Source of the DNA: a virus
Lineage: Duplodnaviria; Heunggongvirae; Uroviricota; Caudoviricetes
Direction: 5' to 3' (one strand)
DNA: 64,000 bases
Virus record (IMG/VR): IMGVR_UViG_2778261667_000017
Below, piece by piece: positions 1,353 to 9,582 of the stretch (position 1 is its first letter; the number at the start of each line of letters is the position of its first letter). The translations under genes and the position numbers were made by a program. A model generated the notes under the pieces. The model did not search any database, was not told the DNA's origin, and saw only the letters and a program-made list of their open reading frames with translations.

Positions 1353-1709
1353 ATGCGTGATATGTATGAAGTATTGGACCGCTGGGGAGCATGGGCTGCA
1401 GCAGAAAATAGTGGTGTGGACTGGCAGCCGATAGCGGCTGGTTTCAAGGGACTTTTACCACACGGTAAAAAGTCACGTCTCCAGTGTGATGATGATGAAG
1501 GCATCATGATAGACGGTTGTGTGGCTCGGTTGCGAAAGTATAAACCAGAGGAATATGAGCTGCTCATAGCTCACTTTGTTATTGGTATCTCATTACGCAC
1601 TATTGCCAAGAAGAGAAGATGTTCAGATGGCACAATTAGGAAGGAATTGCAGACTGCCATGGGGTTTGTTGACGGCTGTTTAGCAATGTTAGCTTATAGT
1701 ATGGCATAA
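1353..1709 (+). CDS. late-gene antiterminator Q (QuuD-like)
   Basis: Starts MRDMYEVLDRWGAWAA; paralogous to the ORF at 41671..42048; GGAG ribosome-binding site upstream of ATG 1353; ORF track start 1338 is a TTG extension. Confidence 0.8.
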   Translation: MRDMYEVLDRWGAWAAAENSGVDWQPIAAGFKGLLPHGKKSRLQCDDDEGIMIDGCVARLRKYKPEEYELLIAHFVIGISLRTIAKKRRCSDGTIRKELQTAMGFVDGCLAMLAYSMA

Positions 1710-2903
1710 AAAATAAAATAGATTTACTGCCGATTTTTCAAAAAAGACTGGGAACTGTTTATATCCAACGTAAATAAGGCCTCCATAAAACATGGCTGAT
1801 GCGAGATATTTAACAGTTCTCATCCTTTTTTTAGCTTTATCAATCAAACCTGTAATGCTACTCTTAATACTATCTGCATTATCTTTGATTTCTTTATTTT
1901 CTTCAAACTTTAAATACTTATCGAAAGCGGACTCCACTCGAGAACGTAAGTTGTCGAATGTTTCATTGAATATCTCAATAGAAATGTAATTGACTTTTTT
2001 TATCATCCAAAGTCCTGCGATAATCAATATTGCTTCGGTTGTTTCATTAGCCTTCACTAAGCCACCAGCTGCTATTAATGCACCGGGAATAGTCAATGCT
2101 TTTGTCTGATTAGATGATATGAATTCGTTAATTTTACTCGTGAACTCAAGATTTTTCTCATCGAGTTCGTTAAGAATTTTATTTACAGAAAACCTCTTTG
2201 TGTAAATCTCATATAGTTCATCATATTTTTTTCTGACGAGTTCAGTAGAGTTAAGCAAGTCAAAGAAATTGAATGTACCATTTGCTTTAAATACTTCGTT
2301 TATGGCTGAACGTATAACGAGCTTGCGCTCGCTTTTGTGTAAATCATTGATTTTTATTGTGTCGAGAAGCTCCTTTATAATTTCATATTTAAGAGACGAG
2401 TTCGATAAGCGATTAATCTCGCTATATTGTAAAAAATGCGTGAGTTCGACTGTATAACTTTTGTCTTCATTGGTGAAAAATAAGACAGAGCAGTCACTGT
2501 TATGATGATCAGCAATTAATGAAAGGATATCTTTCCACATAAAGAAAATATGGATTTTTTCGATGCTTTCATTCTTAGAAGTAGGGAGTATTAACGGCGT
2601 TCCGATGATATAATTTTTCGGAAGAGCGTTTTGGGTGTTTACTCTAGACCAAAAAGACTCAACATTCTCATAAATTATAGCGTCATCCCAAGATGAAGCT
2701 TGGCGATCTAGCCAAATTTCATTATTTTCGATGCAGTTTGTTGCCTTTTTATAACCTATAGATTGTAACAGTCTAATTATTTCAGAACTATTTACAATAA
2801 CAATGCTTTCTTCAAGACTTATGACAGTGTAGTAGCCCTCAACTCTGCTTGAGGCTCCGTTAATAATCTGCGCTAATCTTGATAAGTCATCAGCAATTGT
2901 CAT
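1689..2903 (-). CDS. hypothetical protein with hydrophobic helical segments in the C-terminal third, second gene of the cassette
   Basis: 404 aa ORF; hydrophobic stretches ALTIPGALIAAGGLV, AILIIAGLWMI and YLASAMFYGGLIYVGY; 3' end converges on and overlaps Q by about 21 nt. Confidence 0.7.
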   Translation of the reverse strand: MTIADDLSRLAQIINGASSRVEGYYTVISLEESIVIVNSSEIIRLLQSIGYKKATNCIENNEIWLDRQASSWDDAIIYENVESFWSRVNTQNALPKNYIIGTPLILPTSKNESIEKIHIFFMWKDILSLIADHHNSDCSVLFFTNEDKSYTVELTHFLQYSEINRLSNSSLKYEIIKELLDTIKINDLHKSERKLVIRSAINEVFKANGTFNFFDLLNSTELVRKKYDELYEIYTKRFSVNKILNELDEKNLEFTSKINEFISSNQTKALTIPGALIAAGGLVKANETTEAILIIAGLWMIKKVNYISIEIFNETFDNLRSRVESAFDKYLKFEENKEIKDNADSIKSSITGLIDKAKKRMRTVKYLASAMFYGGLIYVGYKQFPVFFEKSAVNLFYFLCHTIS

Positions 2904-2905
2904 TA

Positions 2906-4081
2906 TTAGCTGTCTCTATATCTTTTGAGTTCATCATAATTTGCCTGACTCAATTTTATCACAATTTCGCATTTGTTGTCAGTGAGAATTACAGGCTTAT
3001 TTGACTTTTCGTCTCCAATAGCTCCACGCATTATTTTCAACTTAAAATTATTGTCGTTATCTGCCACTTCAATTGTAAGCGCGCTTTCAGCTGCTTTAGG
3101 AGTTGGTTCAAATTGAGGATCAATCTGGAAACCATTAAGATTAACAAAATCGACAAACGTTCCCTTACATTTGTGTGAATCAGTCAGGCATGAGTCAATT
3201 ATTTTTGAAATATCCTCTATCTTAACGGACTTATTTCCGTATTTATCTTTTGATTTTTTTTCCAGTAAGGATTTAACTTCATTGTCAATAGTATCACGCA
3301 GTACACGACCGAGTGAGTTTTTACTAGCAAAAATATCTATAGCACTGAATAATTGCTGAATGCTTCTTTTATTGTCCGAATCATGTCGGCAACCTAATGA
3401 GTCTTTGAAAAAATCGCTTTTAGATTTACCTTGCAAGAAATGTACATATGAGTCACCCTTGTTTTCTGGATAACTGGCTTCGAATAAAGTTAAATCGAAC
3501 ATCGCAGCCTGCCGTAAGGCATCGGTATTAATTGGATTTAATCTTGTTGGGGTCAACTTATCCGAATCAAAGTCATAGGCGCTTTGTTTATCAACCATTA
3601 CGATTAGAAGTTTTCCCAAATCCTCTGGTTCGGTAGACTTATAGTGGATGAAAACAACGCTCCCCCCCTGAAGTTGGGCAACTCTCGATTCGTTATTAGC
3701 ATTATGTTTAAGCTTCTCTATTATAGCTCTAGATAAATCAATGAATTCATTATTTTTATTAATGTATTTTTTTAGGATCGTAGGAATGGATGAAGGGTTG
3801 TGATCTGAGTCTAGGAAGTTATGAAATTTGTTTTTTCGGCTAAATTTTTTCTCAATTCTGGTTATGAATTCAGATGTGACTTCATTTTTTAGATCCCAAA
3901 CTTCACCTAATCGATAATCAAATGCTCTTGAATCATTTTTTTCAAGATTTGCTGTTACAGCACCAATAGGAAAGTACGATTGTTTGCCCAGCACTACAAC
4001 ATGAGGCGTGGCGCCGCATTTATCGCAAGCTACAGTTGGGTCGTCAAGAACATTGCCACATTCTAAACAAGTTATATCCAT
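2906..4081 (-). CDS. hypothetical protein with N-terminal C4 zinc ribbon (C5-x2-C8-x10-C19-x2-C22), first gene of an uncharacterised two-gene cassette
   Basis: 391 aa ORF, AT-rich, opposite strand to flanking late genes; stop codon 2 nt before the start of the downstream gene; no family recognised. Confidence 0.7.
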   Translation of the reverse strand: MDITCLECGNVLDDPTVACDKCGATPHVVVLGKQSYFPIGAVTANLEKNDSRAFDYRLGEVWDLKNEVTSEFITRIEKKFSRKNKFHNFLDSDHNPSSIPTILKKYINKNNEFIDLSRAIIEKLKHNANNESRVAQLQGGSVVFIHYKSTEPEDLGKLLIVMVDKQSAYDFDSDKLTPTRLNPINTDALRQAAMFDLTLFEASYPENKGDSYVHFLQGKSKSDFFKDSLGCRHDSDNKRSIQQLFSAIDIFASKNSLGRVLRDTIDNEVKSLLEKKSKDKYGNKSVKIEDISKIIDSCLTDSHKCKGTFVDFVNLNGFQIDPQFEPTPKAAESALTIEVADNDNNFKLKIMRGAIGDEKSNKPVILTDNKCEIVIKLSQANYDELKRYRDS

Positions 4082-4702: not shown

Positions 4703-5179
4703 ATGCAGGTACTAAATTCCCAGCGTAAAGCTTTCCTCGATATGGTGGCATGGTCAGAAGGAACGGATAACGGGCGACAACCGACACGTAACCACGGTTA
4801 TGATGTTATTGTCGGTGGAGAACTCTTCACTGATTACTCCGATCACCCTCGCAAGCTTGTCACGCTAAACCCGAAACTCAAATCAACAGCTGCAGGCCGT
4901 TATCAACTTCTTTCGCGCTGGTGGGATGCTTACCGCAAGCAGTTAGGGCTGACAGACTTCTCTCCTAAAAGCCAGGATGCTGTTGCATTACAGCAGATTA
5001 AAGAGCGTGGCGCTTTACCGATGATTGATCGCGGCGATATTCGTCAGGCTATCGATCGTTGCAGCAATATCTGGGCGTCGTTACCTGGTGCAGGTTACGG
5101 TCAGTATGAACATAAAATCGGTGACCTGATTTTCCGGTTTAAAGAGGCTGGTGGGGTGGTAAATGAAGTTGAGCTATAA
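4703..5179 (+). CDS. endolysin, lytic transglycosylase (lambda R-like)
   Basis: 158 aa; QRKAFLDMVAWSEGTDNGRQPTRNHGYDVIVGG matches lambda R from memory. Confidence 0.9.
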   Translation: MQVLNSQRKAFLDMVAWSEGTDNGRQPTRNHGYDVIVGGELFTDYSDHPRKLVTLNPKLKSTAAGRYQLLSRWWDAYRKQLGLTDFSPKSQDAVALQQIKERGALPMIDRGDIRQAIDRCSNIWASLPGAGYGQYEHKIGDLIFRFKEAGGVVNEVEL

Positions 5180-5489
5180 GCTGGCTATCTCTGCATTCAT
5201 CTTTACTGTCATCGGTTCTTTCATCTGGTCTGCCAACCACTACTACAGCAAATATCAGCACGAAAAGAAACGTGCTGATGAGGCTGTACAAAATGCTGAA
5301 TCTGCAACAGCCATTACCCGTAACGTCCTGCAATCACTGCAAATCGTCAATACAGTTATAGAGGTTAACCAGCATGCAAAACAGCAGATCGCACTGGAGT
5401 CACAGAGAACCCAGAAAGATATCAAAGTGGCTGTTGCGGATGATGATTGTGCTGCACGCCTTGTGCCTTGTGCCTGCTGCCGCTGCTGA
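5163..5489 (+). CDS. i-spanin (Rz-like)
   Basis: N-terminal transmembrane anchor, coiled-coil-like body, overlaps the endolysin stop. Confidence 0.7.
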   Translation: MKLSYKLAISAFIFTVIGSFIWSANHYYSKYQHEKKRADEAVQNAESATAITRNVLQSLQIVNTVIEVNQHAKQQIALESQRTQKDIKVAVADDDCAARLVPCACCRC

Positions 5490-5704
5490 GCGGTTGCGGA
5501 AGTACGCGGACAGTTTACGTGAGCACTCCGGCTACAACATTACCGACTAGTCTGACTTCTGAAACACCTGTACCGTTCATACCAAATCCTCTGACGTATG
5601 GTGCCAGCCTGGAGCTGAATGTGAGTCTGTTGTCTGCACTGGCTAACTGCAATCGGGATAAAGCTGATATTCGTAAAATAGATGCAGAGAGAACTAACCA
5701 TTAA
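5447..5704 (+). CDS. o-spanin lipoprotein (Rz1-like), overlapping the 3' end of Rz
   Basis: Lipobox LSGC, proline/threonine-rich mature region, different frame from Rz. Confidence 0.6.
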   Translation: MCCTPCALCLLPLLSGCGSTRTVYVSTPATTLPTSLTSETPVPFIPNPLTYGASLELNVSLLSALANCNRDKADIRKIDAERTNH

Positions 5705-5725
5705 GCAATAAAATTGTCAAATTGA

Positions 5726-6352
5726 TCAGTTGTCAAATGAATATACGTTAAAGGTATATGTCGACATAATTTCACCAAGTACCTCAATACATATACTTTT
5801 TTTATGAAAATTACTGGGAAATGAACTTAGCTCTTCAAGGTATTGCACATAAGTGCTGATATCACTTGCATCACGTTCAAGGAATTTCACTTGGCCAAAA
5901 GAAGGAGTATTAATCCTGGTTCTTTGCTGGATTATATGGATAAAATGTGTAGTTGGTGAAACTATTACTCTTGAAATATCGGAAATGATGTCTTCTTGAA
6001 CTTGCCGATAAAGTAAATCCTTTGGGTAATGGTGTTTTATCTCGATGGTTGCAACATTGCCATTATGTTCAGACGTTAATATCGACTGGTTATAAAGTGA
6101 TATGTCAACAGCGCCGATACCGAGTTTTGGATGCTCACTTAAAGCAGTTAGTGTGCTGATTTGATTGAGTATAACAACTAACTCATCACGTATTTGTGTT
6201 TCATGTTTGCGATTGTAGAAGTAGCCATTCAGTTCATTTAACTTTTTATGCATCCTATCGTGACTAATTGCTTCGATCAGTAAATCCTGAATCATACTTT
6301 TCTCTAGGTAATCCGAACGGTTGTAAGTGACAGTATTGTGCTGGCATGTCAT
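5726..6352 (-). CDS. hypothetical protein (second gene of the pair)
   Basis: 208 aa ORF 43 nt downstream of 6396..6749 on the same strand; no family recognised. Confidence 0.55.
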   Translation of the reverse strand: MTCQHNTVTYNRSDYLEKSMIQDLLIEAISHDRMHKKLNELNGYFYNRKHETQIRDELVVILNQISTLTALSEHPKLGIGAVDISLYNQSILTSEHNGNVATIEIKHHYPKDLLYRQVQEDIISDISRVIVSPTTHFIHIIQQRTRINTPSFGQVKFLERDASDISTYVQYLEELSSFPSNFHKKSICIEVLGEIMSTYTFNVYSFDN

Positions 6353-6395
6353 TAATATGTAAAGGTATTGTGAATACCAGAAAGATAACGAAGTA

Positions 6396-6749
6396 TCATC
6401 GATAGAAAAACTTTACAGCCCACTCGTAAACAGCTTTGTAAATCGGTTCATGGTAAATACTATCGATACTATTCAGATGTGCGATCATCGCCTCCACAGT
6501 TGTAGTGGTTGTTTCTAATATTTCGATTATTGCAGGGCGGTCATCATCTTCATCGAAGTATTCGAACAGCAGTACAGGTTTACCATGCCATTCAGCATCT
6601 GAGACTCTAAGGTTACAACTACCGCTCAACTCAAAGTGAATTTTGTAATTACCTTCTACAGAATGGCCTACGGGGAAAAAGTATAGGGTGTCATCTTTGT
6701 TCAAAAGCCATTCCCATTCATAACTATTCATTTGTGAACTCCTGTTCAT
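6396..6749 (-). CDS. hypothetical protein (first gene of a reverse-oriented AT-rich pair)
   Basis: 117 aa ORF; acidic; no family recognised. Confidence 0.55.
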   Translation of the reverse strand: MNRSSQMNSYEWEWLLNKDDTLYFFPVGHSVEGNYKIHFELSGSCNLRVSDAEWHGKPVLLFEYFDEDDDRPAIIEILETTTTTVEAMIAHLNSIDSIYHEPIYKAVYEWAVKFFYR

Positions 6750-6881
6750 TGAGTTTCAACAACTATCAACTACATCCAGCGAAGCATAAAAGATCGTTTA
6801 TGGCAAAACCGGAATGGAGTGCGATTCGATTCTGAGAAGGATGCCACGTATCGTACGCGAACCATCCAAGAGGATTATGCA

Positions 6882-7232
6882 ATGCCCCTACGAACCCCAA
6901 AAGCCTGCCGTGTTCGCGGCTGCCGCCATACCACTACTGACCCGTCAGGCTACTGCGAAAGCCACAAAAGCGAAGGCTGGAAGCAATACAAGCCAGGCCA
7001 GTCCCGACACCAGCGCGGTTATGGTTCGAAATGGGATGTTATCCGTGAACGTGTGCTCAAGCGTGACAAAGGCCTGTGCCAGTTGTGCCTGCGTGCTGGT
7101 GTGGTGCGCGAGGCGAAAACCGTTGACCACATCATCCCTAAAGCGCATGGCGGCACTGATGCCGACTGTAATCTGCAGAGTCTGTGCTGGCCGTGTCATA
7201 AGGCGAAGACGGCCCGTGAACGGTTGAAGTGA
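6882..7232 (+). CDS. HNH endonuclease (terminase-associated)
   Basis: Cys-rich N-terminus, DHIIPKAHGG...CWPCH HNH motif; lies directly upstream of the terminase small subunit; start chosen at internal Met MPLRTPKAC. Confidence 0.8.
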   Translation: MPLRTPKACRVRGCRHTTTDPSGYCESHKSEGWKQYKPGQSRHQRGYGSKWDVIRERVLKRDKGLCQLCLRAGVVREAKTVDHIIPKAHGGTDADCNLQSLCWPCHKAKTARERLK

Positions 7233-7357
7233 TAATAATTCTCAACTGCCTGAGGGGAGGGGCGGGTCAAATCCCTGCGGCCTGACGTCTTCCGGACTGC
7301 CCGCCCCATCGTTTTTTTATACCCGCGAAAAATGAAATTTAACCAGGAGTGCCGCAT

Positions 7358-7852
7358 ATGGCTGGAACGGCGGGGCGTTCCGGGCGTCGCCCCAAGCCAA
7401 CGGCGCGCAAGGCGCTGGCCGGAAACCCCGGCAAGCGAGCCCTGAATAAAGATGAACCTGTTTTTACGCCCATCAAAGGTGTTGAGCCACCGGAGTGGTT
7501 CGCTGAAGAAGATCTCCCTCTCGCTACGATCATGTGGCAACTGACAACTAAAGAACTCTGCGGTCAGGGCCTGCTGTGCGTGACTGACCTCGCGGTGCTT
7601 GAGCGGTGGTGCGTGGCCTACGAGTTCTGGCGACGTGCCGTGAAAAATATTGCCAGACAGGGCAACACCATCACCGGTGCAATGGGCGGTATGGTCAAAA
7701 ATCCGGAGCTGACCGCCAAAAAAGAACAGGAGTCCGAGATGAGCAGTACGGGGGCAATGCTCGGACTCGACCCCAGCAGCCGCCAGCGTCTGATTGGCCT
7801 GGCGGGGCAGAAGAAAGCCACTAACCCGTTTCTGAAAATCATCGAATCATGA
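7358..7852 (+). CDS. terminase small subunit (P27 family-like)
   Basis: AGGAG ribosome-binding site 8 nt before ATG 7358; overlaps the start of the large subunit. Confidence 0.75.
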
Positions 7853-9582
7853 GCCGGAAATCTTACCCCAACGTAAATGCTGCCAATCAGTATGCCCGTG
7901 ATGTCGTGCGCGGAAATATTGTGGCCTGCCAGTTTGTGATTCAGGCCTGCCAGCGCCATCTTGATGACCTGATGGCGGAAAAAAGTAAGTCGTTTCGTTA
8001 CCGCTTCGACAAGGACCTGGCTGAACGGGCCGCCAAATTTATTCAGCTGTTGCCACACACCAAGGGGGAGTGGGCATTCAAGAGGATGCCCATCACGCTG
8101 GAGCCGTGGCAGCTCTTTGTGATCTGCTGTGCGTTTGGCTGGGTCAATAAAGGTACCCGGCTGCGCCGCTTCCGGGAGGTGTATACCGAAATCCCCCGTA
8201 AGAACGGCAAATCGGCAATCTCTGCCGGTGTCGCCCTGTATTGTTTTGCCTGTGATAACGAGTTTGGCGCGGAAGTGTATTCCGGTGCCACGACAGAGAA
8301 ACAGGCGTGGGAAGTCTTTCGCCCGGCGCGACTGATGTGTAAACGCACACCCATGCTGACGGAAGCGTTCGGGATTGAGGTTAACGCCTCAAACATGAAC
8401 CGTCCGGAGGATGGCGCGCGGTTTGAACCGCTGATCGGTAACCCCGGTGATGGTTCATCACCCCACTGTGCGGTGGTGGATGAATATCACGAGCACGCCA
8501 CCGATGCGCTTTACACCACGATGCTTACCGGGATGGGGGCGCGACGTCAGCCACTGATGTGGGCCATTACTACTGCAGGGTACAACATTGAGGGGCCGTG
8601 CTACGACAAGCGACGGGAAGTTATCGAGATGCTCAACGGGTCGGTACCCAACGATGAACTGTTCGGGATCATCTATACCGTTGACGAAGGCGATGACTGG
8701 ACCGACCCGCAGGTGCTGGAAAAAGCCAACCCGAATATTGGCGTGTCGGTTTATCGCGAATTTTTGTTAAGTCAGCAGCAGCGTGCGAAAAATAACGCCC
8801 GTCTGGCAAACGTCTTTAAAACAAAACACCTCAATATCTGGGTGTCGGCGCGTTCGGCGTATTTCAACCTGGTGAGCTGGCAGAGCTGCGAGGATAAATC
8901 ACTGACCCTTGAGCAGTTCGAGGGGCAGCCGTGCATTCTGGCCTTTGACCTGGCGCGTAAGCTGGATATGAACAGTATGGCGCGACTTTATACCCGCGAG
9001 ATTGACGGTAAAACGCATTACTACAGTGTGGCTCCGCGCTTCTGGGTACCGTATGACACGGTGTACAGCGTCGAGAAAAATGAAGATCGCCGGACAGCCG
9101 AACGCTTTCAGAAATGGGTGGAAATGGGCGTTCTGACCGTTACCGCTGGTGCGGAGGTGGATTATCGCTACATCCTCGAGGAGGCCAAAGCGGCGAACAA
9201 AATCAGCCCGGTCAGCGAGTCACCCATCGACCCCTTCGGGGCGACCGGGCTCTCACATGACCTTGCTGATGAAGACCTGAACCCCATCACTATCATTCAG
9301 AACTACACCAACATGTCCGACCCGATGAAAGAGCTGGAAGCGGCAATTGAATCGGGGCGCTTTCATCATGATGGCAATCCCATCATGACCTGGTGTATCG
9401 GCAACGTGGTCGGCAAAACCATTCCGGGTAACGATGATGTGGTGAAGCCCGTCAAAGAGCAGGCGGAAAACAAAATCGATGGTGCAGTTGCGCTGATTAT
9501 GGCGGTTGGCAGAGCCATGCTGTACGAGAAAGAAGACACGTTGTCTGACCACATTGAGTCCTATGGGATCCGCTCGCTTTAA
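7849..9582 (+). CDS. terminase large subunit
   Basis: 577 aa; ATPase and nuclease-type layout; position between small subunit and portal. Confidence 0.9.

Follow-up and report, generated by a model that had tools for sequence, protein, structure and literature searches.

Two cargo genes between the lysis and packaging genes of an e14/ymf-like lambdoid prophage: a probable PD-(D/E)xK family protein and an independent acidic protein

Introduction

Proteins of the lambda Bor type are outer-membrane lipoproteins that carry a signal peptide and a lipobox and act in lysogenic conversion. Enzymes of the PD-(D/E)xK (restriction-endonuclease-like) superfamily include resolvases, exonucleases and repair enzymes. 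This work concerns two adjacent genes found at the position equivalent to that of bor in a lambdoid prophage of the e14/ymf type, within a 64,000-nucleotide stretch of Caudoviricetes DNA (IMG/VR record IMGVR_UViG_2778261667_000017), to which we refer as the window. The same prophage carries, as a second pair of reverse-oriented genes, DS-1, a validated anti-phage system of the DefensePredictor study, in which a YejK nucleoid-associated domain is among the validated systems (PMC13092281).

A first-pass annotation, made from the sequence of the window alone, had described the two genes as an insert of no nameable family and had likened them to small-plus-larger gene pairs with toxin-antitoxin, exclusion or lysogenic-conversion functions. 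Here we report that they are real genes under selection that are independently distributed and independently mobile, and that the larger one probably encodes a member of the PD-(D/E)xK superfamily.

Results

Genes of the AT-rich island

The minus strand of the window includes two mechanically called open reading frames (ORFs), 5726..6352 (208 amino acids, aa) and 6396..6749 (117 aa), separated by 43 nucleotides (nt), as the first-pass annotation had listed. These lengths hold for the ORFs and not for the proteins, which are likely of 189 and 111 aa. The internal starts were preferred because the homologs, the RefSeq annotation (189 aa and 111 aa) and a Shine-Dalgarno site (AGGAG, 7 nt upstream of the ATG at 6731) agree. 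The likely large gene begins at M20 of the 208-aa ORF, where the sequence MIQDLL forms the N-terminus of every large-protein homolog, and the likely small gene begins at M7 of the 117-aa ORF, the starting residue in every small-protein homolog; the alignments to PHROG profiles begin at the same two residues. The corrected genes are 100 nt apart. The features of the locus are as follows.

5726..6295, minus strand: likely large cargo gene, 189 aa, WP_053897784.1 type (RefSeq), phrog_12494, with the K30/E32/D64/E85-x-K87 signature
6296..6395, minus strand: spacer between the genes, where a consensus scan matched a promoter-like element that could serve the large gene
6396..6731, minus strand: likely small cargo gene, 111 aa, WP_053897783.1 type, phrog_14397
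6800..6835, plus strand: relic of a foreign terS start, ATGGCAAAACCGGAATGG..., translated MAKPEWSAIRF-stop
5705..6799, no strand: AT-rich island with both cassettes, defined by composition profile, per-gene GC content and flank annotation, and reaching from the LysC stop codon to the terS relic

The AT-richness noted in the first-pass annotation corresponds to a GC content of 35-40% (35.1% in the large gene and 39.6% in the small gene) against 52-58% in the flanks. Annotation of these flanks also bore out the location of the reverse-oriented insert in the slot equivalent to that of lambda bor: the lysis side consists of the holin (4373..), lysozyme (4703..), Rz (5163..5489) and Rz1/LysC (5447..5704) genes, and the packaging side of the genes for an HNH endonuclease (6882..7232), a P27-family small terminase (7349..7852) and the large terminase (7849..9582).

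By their substitution pattern both ORFs are real genes under strong purifying selection, since the ratios of nonsynonymous to synonymous substitution (dN/dS) lie between 0.06 and 0.18 and most comparisons between genera show saturation at synonymous sites. For the large gene dN/dS is 0.16-0.18 when the window is compared with Escherichia coli GF60 and Yersinia and 0.09 between Enterobacter and Klebsiella, and for the small gene it is 0.06 between two orthologs. Intact orthologs exist in at least seven genera, and 82 of 5,426 complete E. coli genomes carry the same DNA, again in this slot of a prophage of the e14/ymf type. The exact window proteins are encoded on hundreds of contigs, where they are always named hypothetical or uncharacterized. 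Neither gene had a match by megablast or tblastn among 50,697 deposited phage genomes. If the ORFs had arisen by chance or were pseudogenes decaying in AT-rich junk DNA, this would agree with the base composition and with the outcome of scans that found no consensus promoter in 6750..6815, upstream of the small gene, and no terminator downstream of 5726, the places where these signals had been anticipated. This explanation is effectively refuted by the conservation data, as it is at odds with the dN/dS values, the saturated synonymous sites and the orthologs just mentioned, as well as with the candidate catalytic residues of the large protein, invariant down to 20% identity, and with the confident prediction of its structure, both described below.

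The large protein and its relatives

Pfam, NCBIfam and PADLOC matched neither of the two proteins, including the system models of PADLOC 2.0 and NCBIfam 20.0, and the only matches were to PHROGs without an assigned function; in this respect the statement that neither belongs to a nameable family stood. An exhaustive profile search with the large protein, which covered 1.84 billion representatives, identified 42 relatives. The sole invariant residues in a 34-sequence alignment extending down to about 20% identity are K30, E32, D64, E85 and K87, and a 57-sequence alignment added N28, R36, N44 and E54 to the conserved set. The AlphaFold2 model, for which the alignment of homologs was the input, has a predicted local distance difference test (pLDDT) score of 89.6 and a predicted template modelling (pTM) score of 0.89. 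Its elements (helix 32-46, strands 50-53, 65-68 and 80-89, helix 97-108 and strand 117-127) form the alpha-beta-beta-beta-alpha-beta core, and the E...D...(D/E)xK motif is distributed over helix 1, beta2 and beta3, with D64 where the second strand begins and E85-x-K87 inside the third, which is the canonical PD-(D/E)xK layout.

The link of the window protein to curated families is transitive only, by way of its homologs. The Mucilaginibacter homolog (L129) matches Pfam PDDEXK_4 over residues 51-139 with 23.7 bits (gathering cutoff 22.3), the Capnocytophaga homolog (L139) matches HSDR_N_2 with an E value of 2.8e-4, below the family cutoff, and alignment of the Enterobacterales profile (A1) with these two homologs by hhalign gave probabilities of 90.6% and 94.7%, respectively. 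Other members show scattered weak matches to HSDR_N, PDDEXK_4, PDDEXK_7, PDDEXK_9 and DpnII-MboI. Sequence searches of the PDB with profiles A1, A2 and A4 returned nothing credible; the matches to MITSUBA-1 and CPR-C4, with E values of about 0.1, were dismissed as due to chance. Taken from the model and the conserved residues, the large protein can be assigned with good confidence to a new, divergent family of the PD-(D/E)xK superfamily with a predicted intact E...D...ExK site.

The neighbourhoods of distant homologs were characterized by a bulk scan of 147 ORFs from 19 loci, most of them from Flavobacteriia. WYL regulators and SLOG/YAcAr proteins were each found at 6 of the 19 loci, type I HsdM together with HsdS at 3, and GmrSD_N at 2. 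The Tamlana haliotis homolog belongs to an integrase/RteC element, on which it is flanked by KwaA-KwaB (Kiwa) on one side and HsdM-HsdS on the other, with Fic and Abi_2 coming next, and at another distant locus the homolog lies beside genes for WYL, two SLOG/YAcAr proteins, RNase_T, PDDEXK_4 and cREC. In three Flavobacteriaceae loci (Tamlana and two Gillisia) hsdM directly follows the homolog, which appears to be the first gene of an operon.

L120, 6001..9521: apparent homolog-hsdM-hsdS operon
L135, 5980..9669: apparent homolog-hsdM-hsdS operon, the homolog stop and the hsdM start overlapping at 6648
L136, 5983..9627: apparent homolog-hsdM-hsdS operon

None of these three loci has an HsdR-sized ORF within 6 kb. 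The linkage to hsdM-hsdS without HsdR hints at a motor-less type I-like arrangement, which would be mechanistically unusual and is the most unusual lead of this study. A doubtful extension of this lead would make the 189-aa family a minimal restriction nuclease without a motor, related to the N-terminal domain of HsdR, which would cut with the HsdR-less hsdM-hsdS in Flavobacteriaceae and alone, without a methyltransferase, in Enterobacterales prophages, where it might be tolerated, for example, by virtue of host Dam/Dcm methylation or the absence of a phage-type modification. A different architecture is found in Acinetobacter, whose relatives (P0098-P0100, P0103, P0108 and P0121; about 310 aa) have the nuclease domain fused to a C-terminal DUF6508; the one such locus examined (L024, 6001..6936) has housekeeping surroundings and is not a defence island.

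Association of the two genes

Co-occurrence was surveyed by tblastn and hidden Markov model (HMM) searches over all 144 fetched loci, which comprise IMG/VR, genome and metagenome contigs. The large gene was found without the small one at 67 loci, the small gene without the large one at 18, and both at 59; many of these 59 are the same contigs fetched twice, and all represent a single E. coli allele (at least 96% identical) with constant spacing. Lone copies of either gene usually occupy the same terminase-proximal slot. The large gene lacks the small one in Enterobacter, Yersinia, Klebsiella and Morganella, where it has the same slot and the same reverse orientation next to packaging modules consisting of Terminase_2 in Enterobacter (with an unrelated 75-aa ORF upstream of the gene), ParB/Mom/Terminase_2 in Yersinia, an Sf6-type terS and a P22 portal in Klebsiella (with a gene-to-terS gap of 41 nt), and HNH plus Terminase_4 in Morganella. 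Conversely, small-gene orthologs that are 63-77% identical stand alone against terS, and the large gene does not come next. In E. coli GF60 and two IMG/VR contigs the large gene is intact and the small gene absent. The upstream neighbour of the large gene in GF60 is a forward-oriented 151-aa gene, and because about 25 nt of the 3' end of the small gene survive there, the small gene must have been lost and the large gene retained. The two genes are thus very probably not an obligate pair, and the earlier proposal of a functional small-plus-larger unit of the toxin-antitoxin kind is left unsupported, since they adjoin only in one E. coli allele and each is found alone elsewhere.

A toxin-antitoxin or toxin-immunity pair, with the 189-aa nuclease as the toxin that the acidic 111-aa protein neutralises, would account for a small acidic gene that precedes an adjacent nuclease gene on the same strand, for the retention of both genes in 73 of the 82 E. 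coli genomes, and for IS3-family breaks in the large gene that leave the small gene intact, as expected for a costly toxin. We consider it improbable in view of the confinement of co-occurrence to one near-identical allele, the diverged orthologs of either gene without the other, and the intact large gene of GF60 and the two IMG/VR contigs. Tight bicistronic coupling of the type II kind is also lacking, as the 100-nt spacer holds a separate promoter-like site that is kept even where the small gene is missing, and the small protein, which has no recognisable fold or family in searches of Pfam, NCBIfam, PADLOC and the PDB, gives no antitoxin, DNA-binding or immunity-family signal.

The large gene is cut off after 38, 107 or 118 codons, with the small gene kept, in L021 (E. 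coli CD45), L022 (E. coli 24AR0142), L081-L083 and L068, and in two annotated RefSeq records the truncation is caused by insertion sequences (IS) of the IS3 family. Such repeated IS disruption points to a possible cost of the large gene; the truncations could reflect such a cost of the nuclease or merely an AT-rich insertion target.

Heterogeneous ORFs of about 113-124 aa upstream of distant relatives were considered as small-protein homologs and rejected, as several unrelated families are represented among them and the small-protein HMM matched none at E <= 1. A repeat protein of about 116 aa (KDKKYGKTLFYIDGNEI...), unrelated to the small protein of the window, is encoded directly upstream of the Flavobacteriia/Weeksellaceae nuclease homologs of L127, L128, L131 and L129 (about 5640..5990).

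Origin of the arrangement

Wherever either gene occurs alone, its cassette borders directly on a terS gene whose product begins MAKPDWG; on the cassette strand this start reads CCCCAGTCCGGTTTTGCCAT. This block, which other phages keep upstream of each cassette, was considered as a shared promoter and rejected, being the reverse complement of the terS start region. The window phage packages with HNH and a P27-family terS and not with a MAKPDWG-type terS, and the relic between its small gene and its HNH gene is composed of 11 codons of such a start. The relic marks the recombination junction of a small-gene cassette imported from a phage with a MAKPDWG-type terS. Because each gene alone occupies the terS-proximal position and the window retains the terS relic, we infer that the E. 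coli arrangement was generated by serial stacking of two cassettes through successive recombination at the terS junction.

Sister prophages carry differing cargo in this slot, and in some syntenic prophages the large gene is missing. On Morganellaceae-type contigs (L073, 2501..3610; L074 and L075, 2614..3723; all minus strand) the slot also contains, adjoining the ortholog of the large gene, a 369-aa gene (MNNSCLLGVVYMANNPLAEVQRESAGASTFGKYNFQFHW...) that could represent additional cargo of a defence type.

The nuclease fold of the large protein, its strikingly constant position against the terS start across different packaging modules, its sporadic distribution among otherwise syntenic prophages, and a terS 5' relic that could have been co-converted are all features that a selfish, free-standing endonuclease of the homing type would produce, if it cut genomes devoid of it near the terS start and spread by recombinational repair that drags the flanks along. 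Yet the relic adjoins the small gene and not the nuclease gene, and the distant family members are chromosomal, in defence-type neighbourhoods or beside hsdMS, and not in phages. The small gene, which is not a nuclease, shows the same positional behaviour, so the slot looks like a general cargo hotspot. We give the homing explanation little credence.

Expression and role

A promoter-like element, TTTACA-17-CACAAT, was found between the two genes instead of in the region upstream of the small gene where the first-pass annotation had suggested looking for one. It is on the minus strand, with the -35 at 6363..6358 and the -10 at 6340..6335, and it runs into the mechanical 208-aa ORF, downstream of its start at 6352. 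The element is kept in E. coli GF60 despite the absence of the small gene, and a perfect TATAAT is present at the equivalent position in Enterobacter, Yersinia and Klebsiella. The large gene may thus be transcribed from its own putative promoter, against the late operon, and because of this apparent promoter and this orientation its product would most likely be made in the lysogen and cut invaders.

The explanation to which we give a somewhat better than even chance is a composite one: two unrelated single-gene moron cassettes stacked between the lysis and packaging genes, one encoding a nuclease that would act in defence or exclusion in the lysogen and the other an independent acidic protein. 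We infer expression in the lysogen, nuclease activity and a defence role for the large gene, and propose that the 189-aa protein would cut incoming nucleic acid as a stand-alone defence or superinfection-exclusion factor. Taken separately, the assignment of such a role to the 189-aa protein is tentative, with a chance that we place slightly under even; exclusion, which the first-pass annotation had listed, or defence is still our best guess for the larger gene, although not as a two-gene system. Such a role is favoured by the defence-type neighbourhoods of the distant relatives, by the presence of DS-1 in the other reverse-oriented slot of this prophage and by the changing cargo of the slot in sister prophages. 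A cognate methyltransferase is missing: the window has LysC and HNH/terminase to either side of the genes, and no methyltransferase is annotated in the 19-kb L001 region. Self-protection could be achieved by the choice of substrate (modified or phage-specific DNA), by host Dam/Dcm methylation or by tight control. The 111-aa protein would be a separate cargo gene product with a function of its own. Two results weigh against the composite explanation: the total number of promoter matches in the scanned region is not above chance in the consensus scan, and a Foldseek search of the PDB with the model of the large protein gave no significant match.

The small protein is acidic, with an isoelectric point (pI) of 4.6 and 20 D/E against 8 K/R residues, and appears cytoplasmic. 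The grand average of hydropathy (GRAVY) of the two window proteins is -0.25 and -0.29, and their N-termini, MIQDLLIEAISHDR and MNSYEWEWLLNKDD, have neither a hydrophobic leader nor a lipobox cysteine. Both are unlike Bor, because a signal peptide, a lipobox and a membrane segment are absent from both. This bears on the alternative of a non-defence role in the phage life cycle or host physiology, such as DNA processing, repair or resolution, or lysogenic conversion of the bor kind. The resolvases, exonucleases and repair enzymes of the superfamily, the bor-equivalent position of the slot and the Acinetobacter DUF6508 fusion among housekeeping genes speak for such a role. It is nevertheless unlikely, as the large gene is accessory, being absent or replaced by other cargo in syntenic prophages, runs against the late operon and is foreign in base composition; the dissimilarity of both proteins to Bor and the absence of both genes from the deposited phage genomes point the same way.

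Other defence cargo of the prophage

The second reverse-oriented pair of the window (1689..4081, minus strand), between the Q antiterminator and holin genes, scored above the cutoffs of two NCBIfam equivalogs, DS1_2 (375 bits against 315) and DS1_1 (451 bits against 330), and the DS1_1 product has a YejK/NA37 nucleoid-associated domain preceded by an N-terminal zinc ribbon. As these matches are far above the cutoffs, the prophage demonstrably carries defence cargo in variable slots. The Q-holin slot appears to be a second exchangeable cargo hotspot. In sister prophages this slot is occupied by two hypothetical genes (L001, 5881..7435) or by a KwaB-like pair (L020, 1..1399), and in Yersinia (L007, 8281..10816) by a 501-aa gene and a Dam-like methyltransferase gene. 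Neither the large nor the small protein was found in the DefensePredictor supplements (eleven accessions) or by full-text searching with accessions and PHROG identifiers, and neither is mentioned in the searchable papers, curated models and defence catalogues, which did not cover Brenes & Laub 2025 (Cell Host Microbe).

Discussion

About 1.5% of complete E. coli genomes carry a member of the large-gene family, which also occurs in several further genera of enteric bacteria. If the product of the large gene is an active defence nuclease, an unannotated single-gene family joins the prophage immune repertoire, and the manner in which a restriction-like enzyme without a methyltransferase spares its host becomes a question. 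The locus also indicates that gene pairs in prophage hotspots can arise by serial stacking of single cassettes, with the terS relic marking the junction in this case, and it cautions that adjacency alone is a poor ground for inferring toxin-antitoxin function.

The locus resembles type II toxin-antitoxin systems with nuclease toxins in that the gene for a nuclease-like protein is preceded, in the same orientation, by one for a small acidic protein, but it differs from them in that the genes do not co-occur beyond one allele, each is stable alone, the spacer is long and bears a promoter-like site, and the small protein has no antitoxin-type domain. Structural alignments of the large protein with the type II restriction endonucleases R.SwaI, EcoRV, BglI and BamHI show only 15-19% identity; sequence and profile searches gave no direct match of the window protein to these enzymes or to Pfam PDDEXK_4 and HSDR_N_2, the protein has an extra C-terminal helix and beta-hairpin, and the prophage lacks an adjacent methyltransferase. 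The likeness to type I restriction-modification systems consists of the family members directly upstream of hsdM-hsdS in three Flavobacteriaceae genomes and of one member that weakly matches the N-terminal nuclease domain of HsdR. On the other hand, the family has no helicase/translocase motor, the hsdM-hsdS loci have no HsdR-sized ORF, and the Enterobacterales prophage copies lack any hsdM or hsdS.

Single-gene or moron prophage cargo, such as that of the lambda rexAB and bor slots or DS-1, shares with this locus the reverse-oriented AT-rich insert, the variable lambdoid slot, the patchy distribution and the exchange between phages with different modules. The two window genes differ from described defence cargo in that they have no PADLOC or NCBIfam model and are known here from sequence alone. 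The large protein is new within a well-known superfamily and a well-known type of slot, and the pair itself is an accident of stacking.
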